A stretch of 36,616 bases of DNA. Origin: Eggerthellaceae bacterium (GTDB taxonomy: Bacteria > Actinomycetota > Coriobacteriia > Coriobacteriales > Eggerthellaceae). The DNA lies in the NCBI GenBank assembly GCA_017559045.1, contig JAFYTB010000078.1, positions 1 through 36,616 on the forward strand, written 5' to 3'. Shown piece by piece: positions 1-31,957 of the stretch. The translations under genes were made by a program, and so were the position numbers. The notes below the pieces were generated by a model, which saw only the letters and a list, made by a program, of their open reading frames with translations, did no database searches and was not told where the DNA came from. Position 1 is the first letter of the stretch; the number at the start of each line of letters is the position of its first letter.

Positions 1-834
1 CTGCAGGCCGTGCACAAGGAGCGCGCGACCGCCCTCTACGGCGTGCCGACCATGTACATCGCCGAGCTCAACCACCCCGACTTCGAGAGCTACGACCTCT
101 CGAGCCTGCGCACCGGCATCATGGCCGGCGCCTCCTGCCCGCCCGACCTCATGCGCGAGGTCATGGAGAGGATGAACATGCGCGAGATCACGATCTGCTA
201 CGGCCTCACCGAGGCCAGCCCCGTGTTCACGCAGACCTCCGTCGACGACGACGTCGAGCACAAGTGCGAGACGGTGGGCCGCAGGCACCCGCCCGTGGAC
301 GTGCGCGTGGTCTCGCCCGACGACGGCCACATCTGCGCCCCCGGCGAGCACGGCGAGCTGTGCGTCAGGGGCTACAACGTCATGAAGGGCTACTACAAGA
401 TGCCCGAGGAGACGGCGCGCGCCATCGACGAGGACGGCTACCTGCACTCCGGGGACCTCGGCACGGTCGACGAGGACGGCTACTACCGCGTCACCGGCCG
501 CATCAAGGACATGATCATCCGCGGCGGCGAGAACATCTACCCGCTGGAGCTGGAGAACTTCCTCATGGGCATGCCCGAGATCCTCGACGCCCAGGTCGTG
601 GGCGCCCCGGACGAGAGGTACGGCGAGATCGTGGTCGCGTTCGTGCGCGTCCACCCCGGCCACGAGGACCTCACCGAGGACGACGTGCGCGAGTGGGCCA
701 TCCCGCGCATCGCGCGCTACAAGGTGCCCAAGCGCGTCTTCATCGTCGACGACTTCCCGATGACGCCGTCCATGAAGATCCAGAAGTTCAAGCTGCGCCA
801 GATGGCGGACGAGCTGGTCAACGGGTCCAAATAG
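1..834 (+). CDS. AMP-dependent acyl-CoA synthetase/ligase, C-terminal part (5' end lies outside the window)
   Basis: Frame 1 is open from nt 1 (ORF track 10..834). The translation has ANL-superfamily C-terminal hallmarks: [40 protein letters not shown], and [19 protein letters not shown] hand count of a sampled 60-nt line gives about 67% G+C, well above the DNA downstream of the stop. Confidence 0.85.
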
Positions 835-24369: not shown

Positions 24370-24483
24370 GCGTTGTCGCTTGAGCCTGCGATTTTTTCGC
24401 ATGGAGCGGCTGCGCCTAAAACGATTTTCTGCCGTTATTCTGCGGTGCTCTGTTGTGCCGCCTTCTGTTCTGGGAAAGAGATT

Positions 24484-26247
24484 ATGAGAAACATCAATTT
24501 GCGCTTCGTTGAGGAGGCTTACAACGACAAGGGCCTCCTTACTGATTTCCGTGTAGTTGCACCCGAAACTTTTAACTTTGGCTACGACGTCGTTGACGAC
24601 ATCGCCGTCAATGATCCCGATCGCATGGCCATGGTTTGGTGCAATCCCGAAGGGGAGGAGCATCGCTTCACCTTTGCTGATATGAAGAAGTGGTCTGACA
24701 AGACTGCAAACTTCCTTTCCGCACAGGGAATCGGCAAGGGCGATTACGTTATGGTTATCCTCCGTCGCCATTATCAGTTCTGGTTTGTTGCTACCGCACT
24801 GGCGAAGCTCGGTGCTGTTATGGTCCCCGCAACCTTCATGCTGAAGGAGCATGACCTTGAGTACCGCCTCAATGGCGCTTCTATCAAATCTGTCATCTGC
24901 ACTTCTGCAGGCGATATTGCCGATGTTGTTGATAAGACCGTGGCGCATTGTCCGAGTGTTGAAAGCCTTATCCTCGTTAACTCTCCGGGTGCTGGCTTGA
25001 CTCAGCCTGATGAGGACGGCTCCTACCGATTTGAAGATGGTCAGCTTATTGGCCCTGCGCTGTCTGGCGAAGCTGGCATTTGCCTGCCCACCATCGAGCG
25101 AGAGGGATGGCTTGACTTCAACGCCTGCGTTCGTGAGGCATCTGAGCAATTTGAACGCAGGGAAACCAACATTGCCGATCCTATGCTCATGTATTTCAGC
25201 TCGGGTACGTCCGGCAATCCGAAGATGGTTCTTCATGATTCTCGTTATGCCGTCGCACATCTTATGACTGCCAAGCATTGGCACAATGTCCTTCCTGACG
25301 GCATTCACTTTACGATCGCTGACACTGGCTGGGGTAAGGCTGTTTGGGGTAAGTACTATGGCCAGTGGCTCATGGAGGCATGCGTTTTCACGTATGACTT
25401 CGACCGCTATCAGCCGACCGAGATCCTTTCCATGATCGGAAAGTATGGCATTACGACACTCTGCTGCCCGCCGACCATGTATCGACTCATGATGCAGGCC
25501 GATGTTGACTCTTTCGATCTCAGCTCTCTTGTTTATTGCACGACGGCTGGTGAGGCGCTTAACCCTGATCTCTTTGATTTCTGGAAAGAGCACACCGGTC
25601 TTACCATCTTTGAGGGCTTTGGACAGACCGAGACGCCGCTCACCATCGCAAATCTCACCAATTCCACCCCTAGACCTGGTTCGATGGGTAAGCCTGTTCC
25701 GATGTATGACGTTCAGGTGCTGCGTGAAGATGGCACGCGCTGCAACACCGGCGAGACCGGCGAGATTTGCATTGCCTGTGATCCCCATCCCGCTGGCATC
25801 ATGATGGAGTACTTCCGCAATCCTGAGAAAACTCAGGAGGCAATGCATGATGGTTGGTATCACACCGGCGACACCGCATGGCGTGATGAGGATGGCTATC
25901 TCTGGTATGTTGGCCGCAATGACGATGTCATCAAGTCGAGTGGCTACCGTATCGGCCCCTTTGAGATCGAGAGCGTTATGCTTGAGCATGATGCCGTTCG
26001 AGAGGTCGCTGTCACCGGCGTGCCCGATCCTGTTCGTGGAAAGGCCGTTAAGGCAACCGTAGTACTTGCTGATGGCTTTAAGCCCTCCGAGGAGCTGACG
26101 CGAGAGCTTCAGCGTTGGGTTAAGAACCAGACTGCTCCCTATAAGTATCCGCGCGTTGTCGAGTATGTTGACGCTTTGCCTCGTACGGTTAACGGAAAGA
26201 TCCGTCGTGTTGCGATTCGTCAGGCTGACGAAGCCGCCAATGCGTAA
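24484..26247 (+). CDS. AMP-forming acyl-CoA synthetase, medium-chain (ACSM/MACS-like) type, paralog 1
   Basis: 587 aa from the ATG at 24484 (gggaaagag SD). N-terminal FNFGYDVVDD, then YFSSGTSGNPK, TAGEALN, EGFGQTE, YHTGDTA, GRNDDVIKSSGYRIGPFEIES and PRTVNGKIRR. The upstream in-frame extension to 24373 is rejected. Confidence 0.86.
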   Translation: MRNINLRFVEEAYNDKGLLTDFRVVAPETFNFGYDVVDDIAVNDPDRMAMVWCNPEGEEHRFTFADMKKWSDKTANFLSAQGIGKGDYVMVILRRHYQFWFVATALAKLGAVMVPATFMLKEHDLEYRLNGASIKSVICTSAGDIADVVDKTVAHCPSVESLILVNSPGAGLTQPDEDGSYRFEDGQLIGPALSGEAGICLPTIEREGWLDFNACVREASEQFERRETNIADPMLMYFSSGTSGNPKMVLHDSRYAVAHLMTAKHWHNVLPDGIHFTIADTGWGKAVWGKYYGQWLMEACVFTYDFDRYQPTEILSMIGKYGITTLCCPPTMYRLMMQADVDSFDLSSLVYCTTAGEALNPDLFDFWKEHTGLTIFEGFGQTETPLTIANLTNSTPRPGSMGKPVPMYDVQVLREDGTRCNTGETGEICIACDPHPAGIMMEYFRNPEKTQEAMHDGWYHTGDTAWRDEDGYLWYVGRNDDVIKSSGYRIGPFEIESVMLEHDAVREVAVTGVPDPVRGKAVKATVVLADGFKPSEELTRELQRWVKNQTAPYKYPRVVEYVDALPRTVNGKIRRVAIRQADEAANA

Positions 26248-26268
26248 TTAAGCGAAGTGCGAACTTAG

Positions 26269-26997
26269 ATGAATCTTCCCGAATTGCTTTCCCCTGTAAC
26301 CGTAATTTGCGGCCATTATGGGGTTGGAAAAACGAATTTCGCCTTGAATCTTGCTTTGGATGCATCTAAGGCAGGGTTCAAGGTCACCCTTATCGATCTC
26401 GATATAGTCAACCCCTATTTCAGGTCGAGTGAATATCGAGTTCTTCTTGATGATTCGGGCGTTTCGCTGGTATCCCCGGTGTTTGCCCAAGCTGGAACCA
26501 GCTTGGATGTCCCTTCTCTGACGGGCGCCATTATTCCTGCAATAAATCGTGCGTACTTCGATCATGCCAAGGGTTCGTCCCTTGAGCGTGTCATCATCGA
26601 TGTAGGCGGTGACGATGCGGGTGCTACGGCTCTTGCTCGTTACACGCGTGAGATTTCTGCCGGACCGCATGATTTGCTCTACGTCGTGAACAAATTCAGG
26701 AACCTAACCCAGAATCCGGAGGATGCTGTTGAGGTTCTTCAAGAGATTCAAGAACGTAGCGGACTGAGGGCTACTGGCTTGGTCAGCAATGCTCACCTCA
26801 AGTCTGAAACCTCTCTATCCGAGGTGTTTGAGGGTGCTCGCTTCGCTTACGTCATTAGTGATATGACGAGTATTGAAGCTAAGTGCATTACTCTGCCTAT
26901 TTCGCTCGTTCAGCAGGTAGGGGAGGATGGCGAGGCTATCGTGCCCGTAGATAAAAGGTATCCTGTGCGGATACTCGTAAAATCCCCCTGGGAGTAA
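26269..26997 (+). CDS. Orphan P-loop NTPase, SIMIBI (MinD/ParA/CooC-like) fold
   Basis: 242 aa. Walker A GHYGVGKT sits immediately after a beta-strand (VTVIC), followed by KVTLIDLD and a Walker B-like VIIDVGGDD. There is no CxxC motif and no MinD-type KGG signature lysine. Confidence 0.65.
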   Translation: MNLPELLSPVTVICGHYGVGKTNFALNLALDASKAGFKVTLIDLDIVNPYFRSSEYRVLLDDSGVSLVSPVFAQAGTSLDVPSLTGAIIPAINRAYFDHAKGSSLERVIIDVGGDDAGATALARYTREISAGPHDLLYVVNKFRNLTQNPEDAVEVLQEIQERSGLRATGLVSNAHLKSETSLSEVFEGARFAYVISDMTSIEAKCITLPISLVQQVGEDGEAIVPVDKRYPVRILVKSPWE

Positions 26998-27046
26998 TTT
27001 CCCTGCTTTTAGCAGGTTGGATTAGATTTCAAGAAAGAGGTGCTCT

Positions 27047-27253
27047 ATGGCCAGAATCGCTGTCGATGAGGGCTTCTGCAAGGGCTGCGGCCTTTGCGTT
27101 GACGCCTGCCCTCGAAGCATCATAGAACTCGATCCTGATCGCATCACGCCGAAGGGATACCATCCCGCGCACTGCATCGACGACTCCCGTTGCACGGGCT
27201 GCGCCAACTGCGCTCTGATGTGCCCCGACGTCGCCATCACGGTTTGGAGGTAG
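27047..27253 (+). CDS. 2x[4Fe-4S] ferredoxin-type delta subunit of 2-oxoacid:ferredoxin oxidoreductase
   Basis: 68 aa with two cluster motifs, CKGCGLCVDACP and CTGCANCALMCP. The stop lies 2 nt before the alpha subunit ATG. Confidence 0.87.
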   Translation: MARIAVDEGFCKGCGLCVDACPRSIIELDPDRITPKGYHPAHCIDDSRCTGCANCALMCPDVAITVWR

Positions 27254-27255
27254 AC

Positions 27256-28326
27256 ATGGCAGAGAAAGTTCTCATGAAGGGCAACGAGGCCCTCGCTGAG
27301 GCCGCGCTGCGCGCCGGCTGCCGCTTCTTCTTCGGCTATCCCATCACGCCGCAGACCGAGGTCGCGGCGTACATGTCCAAGCGCCTTCCGCAGGTCGGCG
27401 GCACCTACCTGCAGGCCGAGTCCGAGGTCGCGGCCATCAACATGGTCTACGGCGCCTCCGCCGCGGGTGCGCGCGTCATGACGTCCTCCTCCTCCCCGGG
27501 CATCTCCCTGAAGAGCGAGGGCATCTCCTACATGGCCGGCGCCGACCTCCCCGGCGTCATCATCAACATCCAGCGCGGCGGCCCGGGCCTCGGCGGCATC
27601 CAGCCGTCCCAGTCCGACTACTGGCAGGCCACCCGCGCAACCGGCCACGGCGACTTCCAGATCTTCGTCTTCGCGCCCTCCACGGTCCAGGAGATGGCCG
27701 ACTGCGCCTACGAGGCGTTCGACATCGCCGACAGGTACCGCATCCCCGTCATGATCCTCGGAGACGGCCTCCTCGGCCAGATGATGGAGCCCGTCGCCCT
27801 GCCCGAGCAGCGCGATCTCTCCAGCCTCCCCGAGAAGCCCTGGGCGACCAGCGGCCACAGGGGCGAGAGGGCGCACAACGTCGCCAACTCCCTCTACCTC
27901 ACCGCAGAAGAGCTCGAGCGCCTCAACATCGAGCGCTACGAGCGCTACCAGGCCATCAAGGACGCCGAGCAGCGCTGCGAGGAGTACCTCGTCGACGACG
28001 CCGACATCGTCATCGTCGCGTTCGGCGCCTCGGCCCGCGTCGCGCGCAGCGCCGTCAACGCCGCCCGCGAGCAGGGCATCAGGGCCGGCCTTCTCCGCCC
28101 CGTCACCCTGTGGCCCTTCCCCGAGTCCGCCGTCTCCGCCGCGGCCGACTCCGCGAAGGCGCTCCTTGCCGTGGAGATGAACATGGGCCAGATGGTCGAC
28201 GACGTGCGCCTCGTCGCGAACGGCCGCGTCCCCGTGGAGTTCTTCGGCCGCACCGGCGGCGTCATCCCCACGCCCGCCGAGGTGCTCGCGAAGATCGTCG
28301 AGATCAATGAGAGGAGCGGTGAGTAG
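27256..28326 (+). CDS. 2-oxoacid:ferredoxin oxidoreductase alpha subunit (VorB/PorA-like)
   Basis: 356 aa from the ATG at 27256. LMKGNEALAEAALRAGCRFFFGYPITPQTE is typical of OFOR alpha subunits. About 72% G+C in sampled lines. Confidence 0.88.
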   Translation: MAEKVLMKGNEALAEAALRAGCRFFFGYPITPQTEVAAYMSKRLPQVGGTYLQAESEVAAINMVYGASAAGARVMTSSSSPGISLKSEGISYMAGADLPGVIINIQRGGPGLGGIQPSQSDYWQATRATGHGDFQIFVFAPSTVQEMADCAYEAFDIADRYRIPVMILGDGLLGQMMEPVALPEQRDLSSLPEKPWATSGHRGERAHNVANSLYLTAEELERLNIERYERYQAIKDAEQRCEEYLVDDADIVIVAFGASARVARSAVNAAREQGIRAGLLRPVTLWPFPESAVSAAADSAKALLAVEMNMGQMVDDVRLVANGRVPVEFFGRTGGVIPTPAEVLAKIVEINERSGE

Positions 28327-28327
28327 C

Positions 28328-29164
28328 ATGAGCGAAGCAACCGCCGAGAAGCTCGTCTACGAGCGCCCCCACGCGCTTCTGCCCGTGGTCACCAACTACT
28401 GCCCCGGATGCCCGCACGGCATCGTCATCCGCCTCGTGGCCGAGGTCCTCGACGAGCTCGGGGTCGAGGGCGAAGCCGTCGGCGTCGCGCCCGTCGGCTG
28501 CGCCGTCATGGCCTACGACTTCTTCGGATGCGACATGATCGAGGCCGCGCACGGCCGCGCCCCGGCTGTCGCCACCGGCGTGAAGCGCGTCCATCCCGGC
28601 AACGTGGTCTTCGCCTACCAGGGCGACGGCGACCTCGCCTCCATCGGCATGGCCGAGACCGTCCACGCCGCCACCCGCGGCGAGAACATCACCGTCATCT
28701 TCATCAACAACGCGATCTACGGCATGACGGGCGGCCAGATGGCCCCCACCTCGCTTCCGAACCAGGTCACCCAGACCTCGCCCTACGGCCGCGACGTCGA
28801 CACCGCCGGCTACCCGGTGCGCGTCGCCGAGCTCCTCTCGAGCCTCGACGGCGTCGCCTACATCGAGCGCGTCACCGTCGACAAGCCCGCAAGCGTCCGC
28901 AAGGCCAAGAAGGCCATCAGGAAGGCCTTCGAGACCCAGATCGCCGGCCGCGGCTACTCCATGGTCGAGGTGGTCTCCACCTGCCCGACCAACTGGGGCA
29001 TGACCCCGCAGGACTCCTTCGAGTGGATGCGCGAGAACATGCTTCCCTATTATCCGCTCGGCGTTAAGAAGGACGTCGTGGCCGACGGCTTCGAGAACGC
29101 GGCGGAGGCCGCCCTCGCCCGCGCGGCCGGCTGCCCCATCGCGCAGCCCAAGGGCGCAGAGTAG
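28328..29164 (+). CDS. 2-oxoacid:ferredoxin oxidoreductase beta subunit (thiamine-diphosphate binding)
   Basis: 278 aa from the ATG at 28328. CPGCPHG, TPP motif GDGDL...NNAIYGMTGGQ, and a 1-nt gap after the alpha stop. Confidence 0.88.
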   Translation: MSEATAEKLVYERPHALLPVVTNYCPGCPHGIVIRLVAEVLDELGVEGEAVGVAPVGCAVMAYDFFGCDMIEAAHGRAPAVATGVKRVHPGNVVFAYQGDGDLASIGMAETVHAATRGENITVIFINNAIYGMTGGQMAPTSLPNQVTQTSPYGRDVDTAGYPVRVAELLSSLDGVAYIERVTVDKPASVRKAKKAIRKAFETQIAGRGYSMVEVVSTCPTNWGMTPQDSFEWMRENMLPYYPLGVKKDVVADGFENAAEAALARAAGCPIAQPKGAE

Positions 29165-29179
29165 GAAAGGGGATACAAC

Positions 29180-29716
29180 ATGAGCAAGGATATGCAGGCG
29201 GTGTTCGCCGGCTTCGGCGGCCAGGGCACCCTCTTCTCCGGCAAGGTCGTCGCCTACGCGGGCCTCATCGAGGGCCGCGAGGTCTCGTGGTTCCCGTCCT
29301 ACGGCCCCGAGATGCGCGGCGGCACCGCCAACTGCTCCGTCACCGTCTCGGACTCCCTCATCGGCAGCCCCCTGGTGACCGAGCCCGACGCGGTAATCGC
29401 CATGAACCAGCCCTCGTTCGACAAGTTCCTCCCCATGGTCAAGAAGGGCGGCATCGTCGTCGCCGACACCTCCATGGTCGCGGACCTCGCCCAGCGCGAG
29501 GGCGTACGCGTCATCGGCATCCCCGCGACCAAGATCGCGGAGGAGGCCGGTCTCAAGGGTCTTGCCAACATCGTGCTTCTCGGACGCCTCTTCGCGGAGG
29601 AGCCCTTCTGCTCTCCCGAGAGCCTCGATGCCGCTCTTGTTAAGTGCATTCCGCCGAAAAAGGCGGCTATGCTCGACAAGAACCGTGTTGCCGTCAAGCT
29701 TGGAATGGAGTCGTAA
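29180..29716 (+). CDS. 2-oxoacid:ferredoxin oxidoreductase gamma subunit
   Basis: 178 aa. FAGFGGQGTLFSGKV...SYGPEMRGGTANCSV is typical of OFOR gamma domains. Confidence 0.88.
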   Translation: MSKDMQAVFAGFGGQGTLFSGKVVAYAGLIEGREVSWFPSYGPEMRGGTANCSVTVSDSLIGSPLVTEPDAVIAMNQPSFDKFLPMVKKGGIVVADTSMVADLAQREGVRVIGIPATKIAEEAGLKGLANIVLLGRLFAEEPFCSPESLDAALVKCIPPKKAAMLDKNRVAVKLGMES

Positions 29717-30264
29717 TGGACGCTATGAGGGAAATCGGCCTCCGTATTGAGGGCCTCCGTGAGGCTTGCGACGTAACCCAGGAGGAAATGGCACGCGAGC
29801 TTAGCGTTGATCTTGAAACGTATCAGAGGTGGGAGCAGACGGGTGCGGATGTGCCTATCTCCGCTATCTACCATATGGCTAAGACCTTTGGCGTTGAGTT
29901 TACTGAGATCCTCACGGGTACTGCCGCGAAGCTTGACACGTATCAGGTAGTCCGTGCTGGTGAGGGTAAGGAAGTTGATCGTTACCCTGGTTATTACTAC
30001 GAGGATCTCGCCTGGCGTTATCAGGGAAAGATCATGCAGCCTTTGCTTGTTGTCCTTGATCCTTCCGATGAGCCTGCGAAGCTTGTTTCCCATACGGGTC
30101 AAGAGTTCAACGTGGTAATTGAGGGTACTGTTATCGTTCAGTTTGAGGACAAGGAATTTGCCCTGAATCCTGGCGATAGCATTTACTTCAACCCCATGTA
30201 TCCGCATGGTCAGCGCTGTGGCGGCAACGCTACTGCGAAATTCATCACCATCATTGCTGAATAA
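29716..30264 (+). CDS. XRE-family HTH regulator with C-terminal cupin domain (copy 2)
   Basis: 182 aa from the ATG at 29716, which forms a TAATG overlap with the gamma stop. HTH (RIEGLREACDVTQEEMARELSVDLETYQRWEQTG) plus cupin-like segment (HTGQEFNVVIEGTVIV..LNPGDSIYFNPMYPHG). Same architecture as copy 1 but visibly divergent. Confidence 0.78.
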   Translation: MDAMREIGLRIEGLREACDVTQEEMARELSVDLETYQRWEQTGADVPISAIYHMAKTFGVEFTEILTGTAAKLDTYQVVRAGEGKEVDRYPGYYYEDLAWRYQGKIMQPLLVVLDPSDEPAKLVSHTGQEFNVVIEGTVIVQFEDKEFALNPGDSIYFNPMYPHGQRCGGNATAKFITIIAE

Positions 30265-30283
30265 CGAAAGACATTAATCATCC

Positions 30284-31957
30284 ATGGATCACATTCTGAA
30301 AAAGTACTGCCCTCGTATTGAATTCGACTCTTACGAAGATTTCTTTGAGAATTTCTCCATTGAAGTACCTGAGGATTTTAACTTCGGCTATGACGTCGTT
30401 GACGAGTGGGCGAGGGTGGAGCCTGAGAAGCGTGCGCTGGTTTGGTGCGACGATGCCGGCAACGAGCGCATCTTCGCGTTCTCGGATGTTTCCCGTATTT
30501 CCAATAAGGTAGCCAATGCCTTCTACAAGCGCGGTATTCGCAAGGGCGACGTTGTCATGTGCATCCTTCGTCGCCGTTGGGAGTATTGGATGATTGCGTC
30601 TGCCTTGTGCAAGATTGGTGCAACCGTCATTCCCGCATCTTTGCAGCTCACTAAGAAGGACATTGTCTATCGAGCAAATGGCGCAAACGTCAAGATGATG
30701 GTTTGCGTAAGCGATCCTTACGTTCTTGAGCAGGTCGAGCTTGCAAGGCCCGATGCCCCGTCTATCGCTGACATCGTCATCGTCGACGGCGAGCGTGAGG
30801 GCTGGCTGACCTTTGATGATCTGATCGCTGATGAGCCTGAGACCTGGACCCGCCCCGAGGGTTCCGAGCGTACGTGCTCTAGCGATACTATGCTCATTTA
30901 TTTCACCAGCGGCACTACGGGCAACGCTAAGGCTGTTTGCCATAATTTTGCCCATCCGTTGGGTCATATCCTTACCGCTCGTTATTGGCAGCAGGTTAAG
31001 GAAAATTGCCTTCATATGAGCGTTACGGACTCCGGTTGGGCAAAGTTCGGCTGGGGAAAGATCTACGGCCAGTGGATTTGCGGTGCCACCATCTTTGCGT
31101 ATGACATGGAGAAGTTCGTTCCCCTGAAGCTTCTTCAGAAGATTCAGGATTACAAGCTCACCACTTTCTGCGCGCCTCCGACCATGTATCGCTTCATGCT
31201 TCAGGAAGACGTTTCGCAGTTTGATCTCTCTAGCGTTCAGAATTTCGCCACTGCTGGTGAGCCCTTGAATGCTGAAGTTACGCTTGTATGGGAGCGCTTG
31301 ACCGGTAAGAAGATTCGTGAGGGTTTTGGTCAGACCGAGGGCCCTGTTCTTCTTGCAACCTTTGAGTGGGTTGAACCGCGACCCGGCTCCATGGGCAAGC
31401 CTTCTCCGCTTCTCAACATTAAGCTTCTTGATGATGACGGCGCTCAGGTTCCTGATGGCGAAGAGGGTGCAATTTGCGTTACCGGCCTCAAGGAGGCTTA
31501 CCCGCCTGGCCTTTTCGTGGGTTATTACCAGGATGAGGAGCGCACGCGCGAGGCGGTTGGTGGAGAGTATTACAACCTTCACGACATGGCCTGGCGCGAC
31601 TCTGACGGTTATTGCTTCTTCGTTGGCCGCAACGATGACGTTATTAAGTGCTCTGGCTACCGCATCGGCCCCTTTGAGGTCGAGAGCGCTCTGATCGAGC
31701 ATCCTGCTGTTGTCGAATGCGCTGTTACCGCAGCACCCGATCCCATTCGTGGCATGGTGGTTAAGGCTACCGTTGTTCTTGCGAGAGGCTACGAGCCTTC
31801 CGATGAGCTTATCAAGGAGCTGCAGACTCACGTCAAGAAGACCACGGCACCTTATAAGTATCCTCGTATTGTCGAGTTTGTCGACGAGCTGCCTAAGACC
31901 ATCGGCGGCAAGATTAAGCGCAAGCTGATTCGTACGCAGGACGGAATTAAGGATTAG
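30284..31957 (+). CDS. AMP-forming acyl-CoA synthetase, medium-chain (ACSM/MACS-like) type, paralog 2
   Basis: 557 aa with the same motif set as paralog 1: FNFGYDVVDE, YFTSGTTGNAK, TAGEPLN, EGFGQTE, GRNDDVIKCSGYRIGPFEVES and PKTIGGKIKR. It lacks a roughly 30-aa insertion present in paralog 1. Confidence 0.86.
   Translation: MDHILKKYCPRIEFDSYEDFFENFSIEVPEDFNFGYDVVDEWARVEPEKRALVWCDDAGNERIFAFSDVSRISNKVANAFYKRGIRKGDVVMCILRRRWEYWMIASALCKIGATVIPASLQLTKKDIVYRANGANVKMMVCVSDPYVLEQVELARPDAPSIADIVIVDGEREGWLTFDDLIADEPETWTRPEGSERTCSSDTMLIYFTSGTTGNAKAVCHNFAHPLGHILTARYWQQVKENCLHMSVTDSGWAKFGWGKIYGQWICGATIFAYDMEKFVPLKLLQKIQDYKLTTFCAPPTMYRFMLQEDVSQFDLSSVQNFATAGEPLNAEVTLVWERLTGKKIREGFGQTEGPVLLATFEWVEPRPGSMGKPSPLLNIKLLDDDGAQVPDGEEGAICVTGLKEAYPPGLFVGYYQDEERTREAVGGEYYNLHDMAWRDSDGYCFFVGRNDDVIKCSGYRIGPFEVESALIEHPAVVECAVTAAPDPIRGMVVKATVVLARGYEPSDELIKELQTHVKKTTAPYKYPRIVEFVDELPKTIGGKIKRKLIRTQDGIKD

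Follow-up and report, generated by a model that had tools for sequence, protein, structure and literature searches.

In Streptococcus and Neisseria, homologous recombination between related species has produced mosaic penicillin-binding-protein genes, which are among the closest described parallels to the locus analysed here. Two further lines of work bear on it: Lawrence and Ochman are said to have described compositionally atypical "alien" genes and their amelioration, and recombining bacterial genes reportedly show a raised G+C content at third codon positions (GC3), with effects of a few GC3 points (reported by Lassalle et al. 2015, PLoS Genet). The DNA under study is a 36,616-nucleotide (nt) stretch from an Eggerthellaceae bacterium (contig JAFYTB010000078.1 of assembly GCA_017559045.1), hereafter the window, and it contains an operon for the delta, alpha, beta and gamma subunits of a probable VOR-type 2-oxoacid:ferredoxin oxidoreductase (OFOR). 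The core of this operon is saturated with G and C at third codon positions, it lies between GC-poor flanks, and its edges fall within genes, a pattern that may reflect replacement of the core by an allele from a congener.

The window is an entire contig, the longest, of a metagenome-assembled genome (MAG) of 308 contigs (1.79 Mb, N50 8 kb, GC 0.567), with a completeness of 97% and an estimated contamination of 4.4%. Its named homologues and relatives agree with a placement in Eggerthellaceae. The nearest species genome is a MAG of the same genus from goat rectum (G001), and the runs that contain window sequence are gut metagenomes. The tract, the operon and the flanking genes are as follows, with gene assignments from Pfam.

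27166-29548, + strand: GC3-saturated tract; GC3 0.953 over 787 codons against 0.577 outside, log-likelihood gain 220
27142-27282, + strand: interval of the left breakpoint, the looser one, from the 3' third of delta to the first alpha codons
29539-29557, + strand: right breakpoint, sharp, within gamma at the conserved AGLKGLANIV motif
27047-27253, + strand: delta subunit, 68 amino acids, 2x[4Fe-4S] ferredoxin-like (Fer4 families; GC3 0.75)
27256-28326, + strand: alpha subunit, VorB-type, 356 amino acids (POR_N and PFOR_II; GC3 0.955)
28307-29164, + strand: beta subunit, thiamine pyrophosphate (TPP)-binding, 285 amino acids (TPP_enzyme_C; GC3 0.937)
29180-29716, + strand: gamma subunit, 178 amino acids (POR domain; GC3 0.888)
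24373-26247, + strand: AMP1, AMP-binding acyl-CoA ligase of the left flank (GC3 0.575)
26269-26997, + strand: CbiA/ParA-like P-loop ATPase of the left flank (GC3 0.50)
29716-30264, + strand: XRE-type helix-turn-helix (HTH)/cupin regulator of the right flank (GC3 0.555)
30284-31957, + strand: AMP2, AMP-binding acyl-CoA ligase of the right flank (GC3 0.605)

A GC3-saturated tract within the operon

The bounds of the tract come from a two-breakpoint model fitted to third codon positions by maximum likelihood, and the intervals represent 2-logL support. The tract measures about 2.4 kb and comprises the 3' end of delta, alpha, beta and codons 1-123 of gamma. At a GC of about 0.687-0.689 it is the top outlier among 5616 equal-length windows of the genome (0.687 against a mean of 0.565 and a standard deviation of 0.027, i.e. 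more than four standard deviations). Along delta, GC3 rises from 0.55-0.75 in the 5' part to 0.8-0.9 in the 3' part, while the GC3 profile and the third-base string of gamma remain at 0.95-1.00 to about codon 123 and drop to 0.65-0.75 beyond.

An earlier, sequence-only reading had noticed the patch from hand counts of 60-nt lines. These counts proved exact (71.7% G+C for each of the lines at 27301, 27421 and 29461), and the flank lines amount to 43.3% (26401), 46.7% (27001), 53-55% (29641-29821) and 36.7% (30301). The sliding GC and GC3 profiles that it had suggested agree with the counts: GC in 300-nt windows climbs from 0.50 to 0.71 before returning to 0.50, and GC3 is far from uniform, with 0.50-0.60 in the four flank genes against 0.955 in alpha and 0.937 in beta. 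The switch in codon choice that it had described is also borne out, as alanine is encoded by GCC (0.60) and GCG (0.32) and leucine by CTC (0.72) in the tract, compared to GCT (0.37), GCA (0.21) and CTT (0.42) in the flanks. Both breaks indeed lie within coding sequence with the reading frames intact and the coupling as it had been described: the TAG of delta is followed after 2 nt by the ATG of alpha, alpha and beta overlap by 20 nt, and the gamma stop overlaps the start of the HTH-cupin gene (TAATG).

Codon alignment of the break regions across 6-7 congeners revealed that both breaks coincide with nucleotide-conserved blocks shared by these genomes. On the left, the 3' end of delta (ATC ACG GTT TGG AGG) is nucleotide-identical in all congeners, and on the right the adjoining gamma block AAGGGnCTnGCCAACATCGT is near-identical among them. 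Homologous crossovers would be expected in near-identical blocks of this kind.

Gene order and gene lengths are the same in 19 species representatives of the family, and in all 19 the GC3 of the operon matches that of its flanks, in GC-rich genomes (0.93-0.97) as well as in the others (0.57-0.70). Eight additional metagenome loci from genus-level relatives have a uniform GC3 of 0.62-0.83. A rise of the operon over its flanks is absent from these 27 related loci or amounts to a few GC3 points at most. No extra genes, repeats or mobility genes were found at the tract, and the operon and flanks are colinear with those of the 19 relatives, which is in line with the earlier claim of a replacement as opposed to an inserted island.

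The same mosaic occurs outside the source study, and it would therefore be wrong to regard it as recent or private to the window. Runs of other studies (bovine gut, faeces, gut) contain an organism with an operon core about 90-96% identical to the tract and a right flank (gamma 3' end, HTH-cupin and AMP2) that is 82-87% identical; divergence from the window is 7-8% in the tract versus 13-18% in the flanks. Two contigs of one such study (X5) join the high-GC core to low-GC flank, one of 1117 nt across the left boundary and one of 952 nt across the right, and the depths of core and flank pieces agree. According to base-change tallies, the flanks of these sister lineages are GC-poor like those of the window (net +22 GC over about 1.1 kb in X8, -3 in X5). 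Their core is slightly less GC-rich, with 8 exchanges between C and G, 10 GC-to-AT and 6 AT-to-GC differences on a 414-nt contig, and tract GC3 is about 0.9-0.95 despite the flank divergence of 13-18%. Since these diverged lineages share the mosaic, the GC3-saturated core between GC-poor flanks predates them or has moved among them.

The linkage of tract and flanks was checked on separately assembled per-run contigs (contigs, not raw reads) from three samples of one study, which cross the junctions over the following window positions.

Run X1: left junction 26248-27598; right junction 29313-31500
Run X2: left junction 26791-28519; right junction 29313-30552
Run X3: left junction 25863-27912; right junction 29430-31429

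These contigs differ from the window at 0-5 positions, and the depth of 5-7x is alike within and outside the tract. In a fourth sample, a related strain is represented by both flanks and by part of the tract. Based on the less conserved parts of the tract, no second allele with at least 85% identity, whether high- or low-GC, is present in the source samples.

A proposed import by homologous recombination

We consider homologous recombination from a congener of the same clade, very high in GC3 and not yet sampled, to be the best explanation for the tract, and we propose it tentatively, as an account that falls a little short of being probable. The VOR operon core (the 3' end of delta, alpha, beta and gamma to codon 123) would have been overwritten by an allele from another member of its genus-level clade, a group of uncultured gut Eggerthellaceae; nearly all synonymous sites of this allele would have been G or C, and the donor would not be one of the known high-GC genera. 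Crossovers would have occurred in short blocks that are near-identical across the genus, namely at the C-terminal cluster motif of delta or the start of alpha and at the AGLKGLANIV motif of gamma; crossovers within such blocks would leave frames, subunit boundaries and translational coupling intact, as they are. The exchange would have taken place before the sister lineages diverged, or it would have spread by further recombination while they did so.

What favours import is the position of the breaks in conserved blocks, together with a right edge sharper than a diffuse process, or one acting on whole genes, would leave. The opposite compositional paths of tract and flanks at third positions (counts below), the colinearity of the locus with 27 relatives that lack the contrast, and the physical linkage of tract and flanks count in its favour too. 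The GC3 step of about 0.38 at this edge is placed within about 10 nt inside gamma, and because selection at the level of the gene does not predict an intragenic edge, such a step argues for recombination. From these features we infer recombination as the mechanism and, with it, the existence of a donor. A genome-wide scan returned two other intragenic tracts (on C237 and C153), a count that is unreliable as the crude open reading frame caller mis-frames high-GC genes.

Uptake of GC-richer DNA appears to occur in this lineage, as indicated by the many other high-GC3 segments of the MAG, transposases and phage genes among them. Approximately 112 stretches, which add up to 75 kb or 4% of the MAG, reach a GC3 of 0.88 or more, e.g. 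C2:2847-4970, C57, C271, C238:9625-11665, C12, C164, C55, C160 and C256. They include several dimethyl sulphoxide (DMSO)-reductase-family molybdoenzymes together with their Fe-S subunits, insertion sequence (IS)-type transposases, phage capsid- or portal-like genes and PstA/PstB. Many are situated at the ends of contigs or on contigs that are short, and the stretches may represent accessory DNA from GC-richer relatives or contamination of the bin. For the PstAB tract on C238 no donor was found either, the best match being of the same genus at 78-82%.

The sequence-only reading had recommended separate trees for the segments in order to detect discordant neighbours. In single-gene and concatenated trees every segment falls within the genus (100/99 for the tract). 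HTH-cupin and AMP2 of the right flank (29716-31957) group with the G001 lineage (100/99), and the alternative is rejected (P value of the approximately unbiased test, p-AU, 0.003). The left-flank ligase (24373-26247) has no firm grouping with G001 (p 0.05), nor does the tract. As the right flank groups firmly with G001 and the left flank does not, the locus appears to have a reticulate history, and the trees suggest recombination among congeners; this reticulate signal has no statistical tie to the GC tract. The P-loop ATPase (26269-26997) evolves far faster than its neighbours, with 61-63% amino acid identity among congeners versus 87-92%. Compared with the sister lineages it is less than 80% identical at the nucleotide level and includes an unalignable segment of 176 nt, and its last ~130-180 nt together with the intergenic region are 90-96% conserved.

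Several results weigh against import, and they concern proteins, phylogeny, codon usage, persistence and the donor. The tract proteins are 88-92% identical to those of two same-genus genomes, as are the flank proteins, the three species are about equidistant, and in trees the tract proteins sit on short terminal branches within the genus. The exact position of the tract among the congeners has a support of 46/28, and the tract data do not rule out the topology of the flanks (p-AU 0.28); the discordance between tract and flank that would be looked for is not significant. Base composition at four-fold degenerate sites, given below, is also of relevance here.

Tract: T 0.03, C 0.77, A 0.03, G 0.18
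Flanks: T 0.41, C 0.35, A 0.09, G 0.15
GC-rich genera: C 0.48-0.61, G about 0.33-0.46

The sum of T and C (0.80 in the tract vs 0.76 in the flanks) and the share of G (0.18 vs 0.15) hardly differ, and the codon usage of the tract looks like native usage after changes of T to C and A to G, with G-ending codons about half as frequent as in high-GC genera. Long residence in this lineage and a very close donor would account equally well for such native-like usage. The tract shares with the genus the avoidance of CGG and the use of AGG, and its C-skew exceeds that of all 20 relatives compared. Relative to the congener consensus, G-ending codons have been lost alike in tract (16 of 31 to C) and flanks (60 of 95 to T or C), and this loss is a lineage trait common to both.

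If import predates the split of the sister lineages, the tract would have decayed less than a simple neutral model predicts. By a rough estimate, a fully saturated import older than the split would by now have a GC3 of about 0.86, compared to the observed 0.95 (window) and about 0.9 (sisters). This gap would close if the tract coalesced more recently than the flanks (divergence of 7-8% as opposed to 13-18%) or if a force is still acting. As a point in favour of import, a donor GC3 near 1.0 would, again roughly, be compatible if the tract coalesces at about half the flank divergence.

With respect to the donor, a DNA search of 339 Eggerthellaceae species genomes gave the same-genus genomes G001 and G002 as best matches, at 82-83% nucleotide identity, and among 5.8 billion proteins the best alpha match reached 90% and the best gamma match 96%. 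The DNA behind the latter is only 85% identical and has a GC3 of 0.81, and the contigs of the best matches in protein searches with alpha, gamma and HTH-cupin are all uniform, with GC3 0.62-0.83. A run-index search with the tract alone returned nothing closer than congeners, a metagenome contig scan with gamma reached 69% at best, and the best hit of a genome contig scan (88%) was the goat-rectum MAG G001. The source samples contain no co-resident donor at an identity of at least 85%. The interpretation of the sequence-only reading consequently survives in part: the mosaic of an in-place replacement is upheld, whereas the allele from a "much higher-GC relative" is not supported, given proteins that are 88-92% identical to those of congeners and only 63-84% to those of the high-GC genera, dissimilar codon usage and the failure of these searches to yield a donor.

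The MAG includes a second delta-alpha-beta-gamma-HTH-cupin operon (C99:6313-9171, locus L037) with a GC3 of 0.51-0.58 and proteins 75-79% identical to those of the window. It falls outside the genus in trees, near another genus (g4), and its upstream context differs; its depth in the three source samples matches, which makes membership of the same genome probable. This paralogous operon was ruled out as a source of conversion on account of its GC3, its nucleotide identity of 72% and its position in the trees.

Alternatives to import

A somewhat unlikely alternative, and the one that survives best as it fits the data almost as well as import, is that the tract is native, has been driven from AT to GC at synonymous sites and is kept in that state by some local force other than translation. 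Measured against the congener consensus, third positions of the tract show 65 AT-to-GC and 22 GC-to-AT changes (by segment 22:6, 28:6 and 15:10), as opposed to 69:252 in the flanks (31:102, 7:34 and 31:116), and a T-to-C change is found at 34 of the 47 tract sites where congeners have T. At codon positions 1 and 2 the corresponding ratios are 49:50 in the flanks and 23:16, which is not significant, in the tract, and the non-coding spacers are too short to be informative. The AT-to-GC bias of the tract sits at synonymous sites, then, and translational selection does not explain it. As an observation in its own right, flank third positions (24373-26997 and 29716-31957) have shifted about 3.7:1 from GC to AT, with G-ending codons turning into T-ending ones, and the flank GC3 of 0.50-0.60 is the lowest of the genus-level clade (0.62-0.83 in the others); the lineage appears to be losing GC.

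The most concrete candidate for such a force is GC-biased gene conversion (gBGC) acting on a stretch that, as the most conserved of the locus, would undergo repeated exchange between lineages; alternatively, selection could act on some property of the core's mRNA or DNA. We regard it as unlikely that the tract is a long-lived hotspot of gBGC or of another strand-independent AT-to-GC drive. In that event, repeated exchange between species over the most conserved 2.4 kb would saturate the synonymous sites and keep them so through speciation and against an AT-drifting genome. Much of the evidence that weighs against import speaks for drive in place: the four-fold composition of the tract approximates that of the flanks after T-to-C and A-to-G changes, its C-skew is more pronounced than that of any of the 20 relatives, the shift is essentially synonymous, the proteins remain in the genus on short branches, no donor emerged from any collection searched, and a GC3 of ~0.9-0.95 persists in lineages with flanks diverged by 13-18%. 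In addition, 8 of the 24 differences listed for the 414-nt sister contig are swaps between C and G, as would arise at sites that continue to change but remain G or C, and recombining bacterial genes are, as mentioned, reported to have a raised GC3 (Lassalle and colleagues). However, recurrent conversion tracts should blur the right edge, which is sharp to ~10 nt inside a gene, the bacterial gBGC effects reported are a few GC3 points as compared to ~38 here, and the feature is absent from the 19 species representatives and the eight metagenome loci, in which the operon is equally conserved.

Translational selection, by which a very highly expressed operon would have been optimised to C-ending codons, is very improbable, and we rejected it on comparison with a codon-preference reference set of EF-Tu, GroEL and 17 ribosomal protein genes. 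These highly expressed genes do have a GC3 above the genome mean of ~0.63 (ribosomal genes 0.65-0.79, EF-Tu 0.68-0.78, GroEL 0.74) and prefer NNC over NNT for isoleucine and threonine, and the state of the tract has been kept in the sister lineages, as selection would have it. Yet they favour GCT (0.43-0.92), GTT (0.42-1.0) and CGT (0.2-0.56) and have GCG at 0-0.08, and the tract is the reverse (GCT 0.02, GTT 0.03, CGT 0.00, GCG 0.32). Moreover, the edges of the enrichment lie inside delta and gamma and not at gene ends, and VOR orthologues at the 19 and eight related loci exceed their flanks by a few GC3 points at most.

That the DNA came from one of the known high-GC genera, such as Adlercreutzia, Gordonibacter or Raoultibacter, or entered on a discrete mobile island, is hardly credible. 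The operon in those genera does have a GC3 equal to 0.95, and other high-GC3 segments of the MAG do hold transposases and phage genes; nevertheless, identity to the high-GC genera is 79-84% for alpha, 74-84% for beta and 56-70% for gamma, against 88-90% to congeners, the tract is placed in its own genus, G-ending codons are half as frequent as there, and the order of genes is that of the relatives with none of the extra genes, repeats or mobility genes that an island might bring.

A further alternative, one which the sequence-only reading had itself raised, is that a low-GC and a high-GC organism were joined in a chimeric contig through conserved OFOR sequence, and it is hardly credible either: the MAG is fragmented and has some estimated contamination, and another GC3-saturated block on the contig (1-831) stops where the assembly graph branches and the depth changes, but the X1-X3 contigs cross both junctions unbroken at even depth, the fourth sample holds flanks and a tract piece, a single allele is present, and X5 contigs bridge the boundaries, all of it contig-level evidence that leaves a small doubt.

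The block at the contig end is a partial AMP-binding ligase gene (window 1-834, ending at TAG) with a GC3 of 0.996 over 277 codons and four-fold sites of C 0.68 and G 0.32. Unlike those of the tract, its junction is not spanned. In all three runs the graph branches at 812-841, and the depth of the gene is 1.4-1.7x that of the flank. In the sister lineages the orthologue lies beside the same flank at 89-92% identity and has a clearly lower GC3, and congener orthologues have a GC3 of 0.79-0.87. Either a chimeric end of the contig or sharing of the gene with a co-resident genome could account for the block.

Implications and comparison with known systems

If the tract is a patch of recombination, operon cores are exchangeable between congeners that lie about 40 synonymous-GC points apart with their proteins nearly unchanged, and a very GC-rich member of the uncultured gut Eggerthellaceae clade awaits sampling. 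If it is instead maintained in place, it would serve as a natural test of whether codon usage in bacteria can be dominated by biased gene conversion or by selection unrelated to translation, and a hotspot, if real, would far exceed any local gBGC-like effect seen so far in bacteria. In either case the locus illustrates that a call of "foreign DNA" from composition only can mislead, as the proteins are native-like here and the feature is common across species.

As to the enzyme, the locus resembles VOR-type systems (VorDABC/PorDABG) in having a delta ferredoxin, an alpha subunit with POR_N and PFOR_II, a TPP beta subunit and a POR gamma subunit in one coupled operon. All Pfam matches of this four-subunit architecture (Fer4, POR_N with PFOR_II, TPP_enzyme_C and POR) exceed the curated cut-offs, and the alpha homologues carry the NCBI name VorB; the VOR label is a prediction from these domains and homologue names. 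Compared with such systems the proteins are unremarkable, and the oddity resides in the composition of the DNA.

Bacterial gBGC shares with the tract a synonymous AT-to-GC shift in a segment that is likely to recombine, for which translation offers no explanation. The two differ in that the shift here is about 38 GC3 points, versus a few genome-wide, and is confined to a single tract with a sharp edge. The amelioration of alien genes is similar in that a codon-position-specific departure in GC is read as foreign ancestry decaying with time. In contrast to that model, part of a native operon would have been replaced here with no genes added, and GC3 still stands at 0.9-0.95 where simple decay would, by the rough estimate above, give about 0.86.

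The mosaic penicillin-binding-protein genes agree with the locus, on the proposed reading, in combining in-place orthologous replacement with intragenic breaks at conserved stretches, preserved frames and flanks that are native and syntenic. Unlike in those genes, the searches gave no donor here and the protein tree has no significant discordance; the contrast lies in synonymous composition (GC3 0.95 versus 0.58) and not in amino acids, and the mosaic is common to diverged sister lineages.

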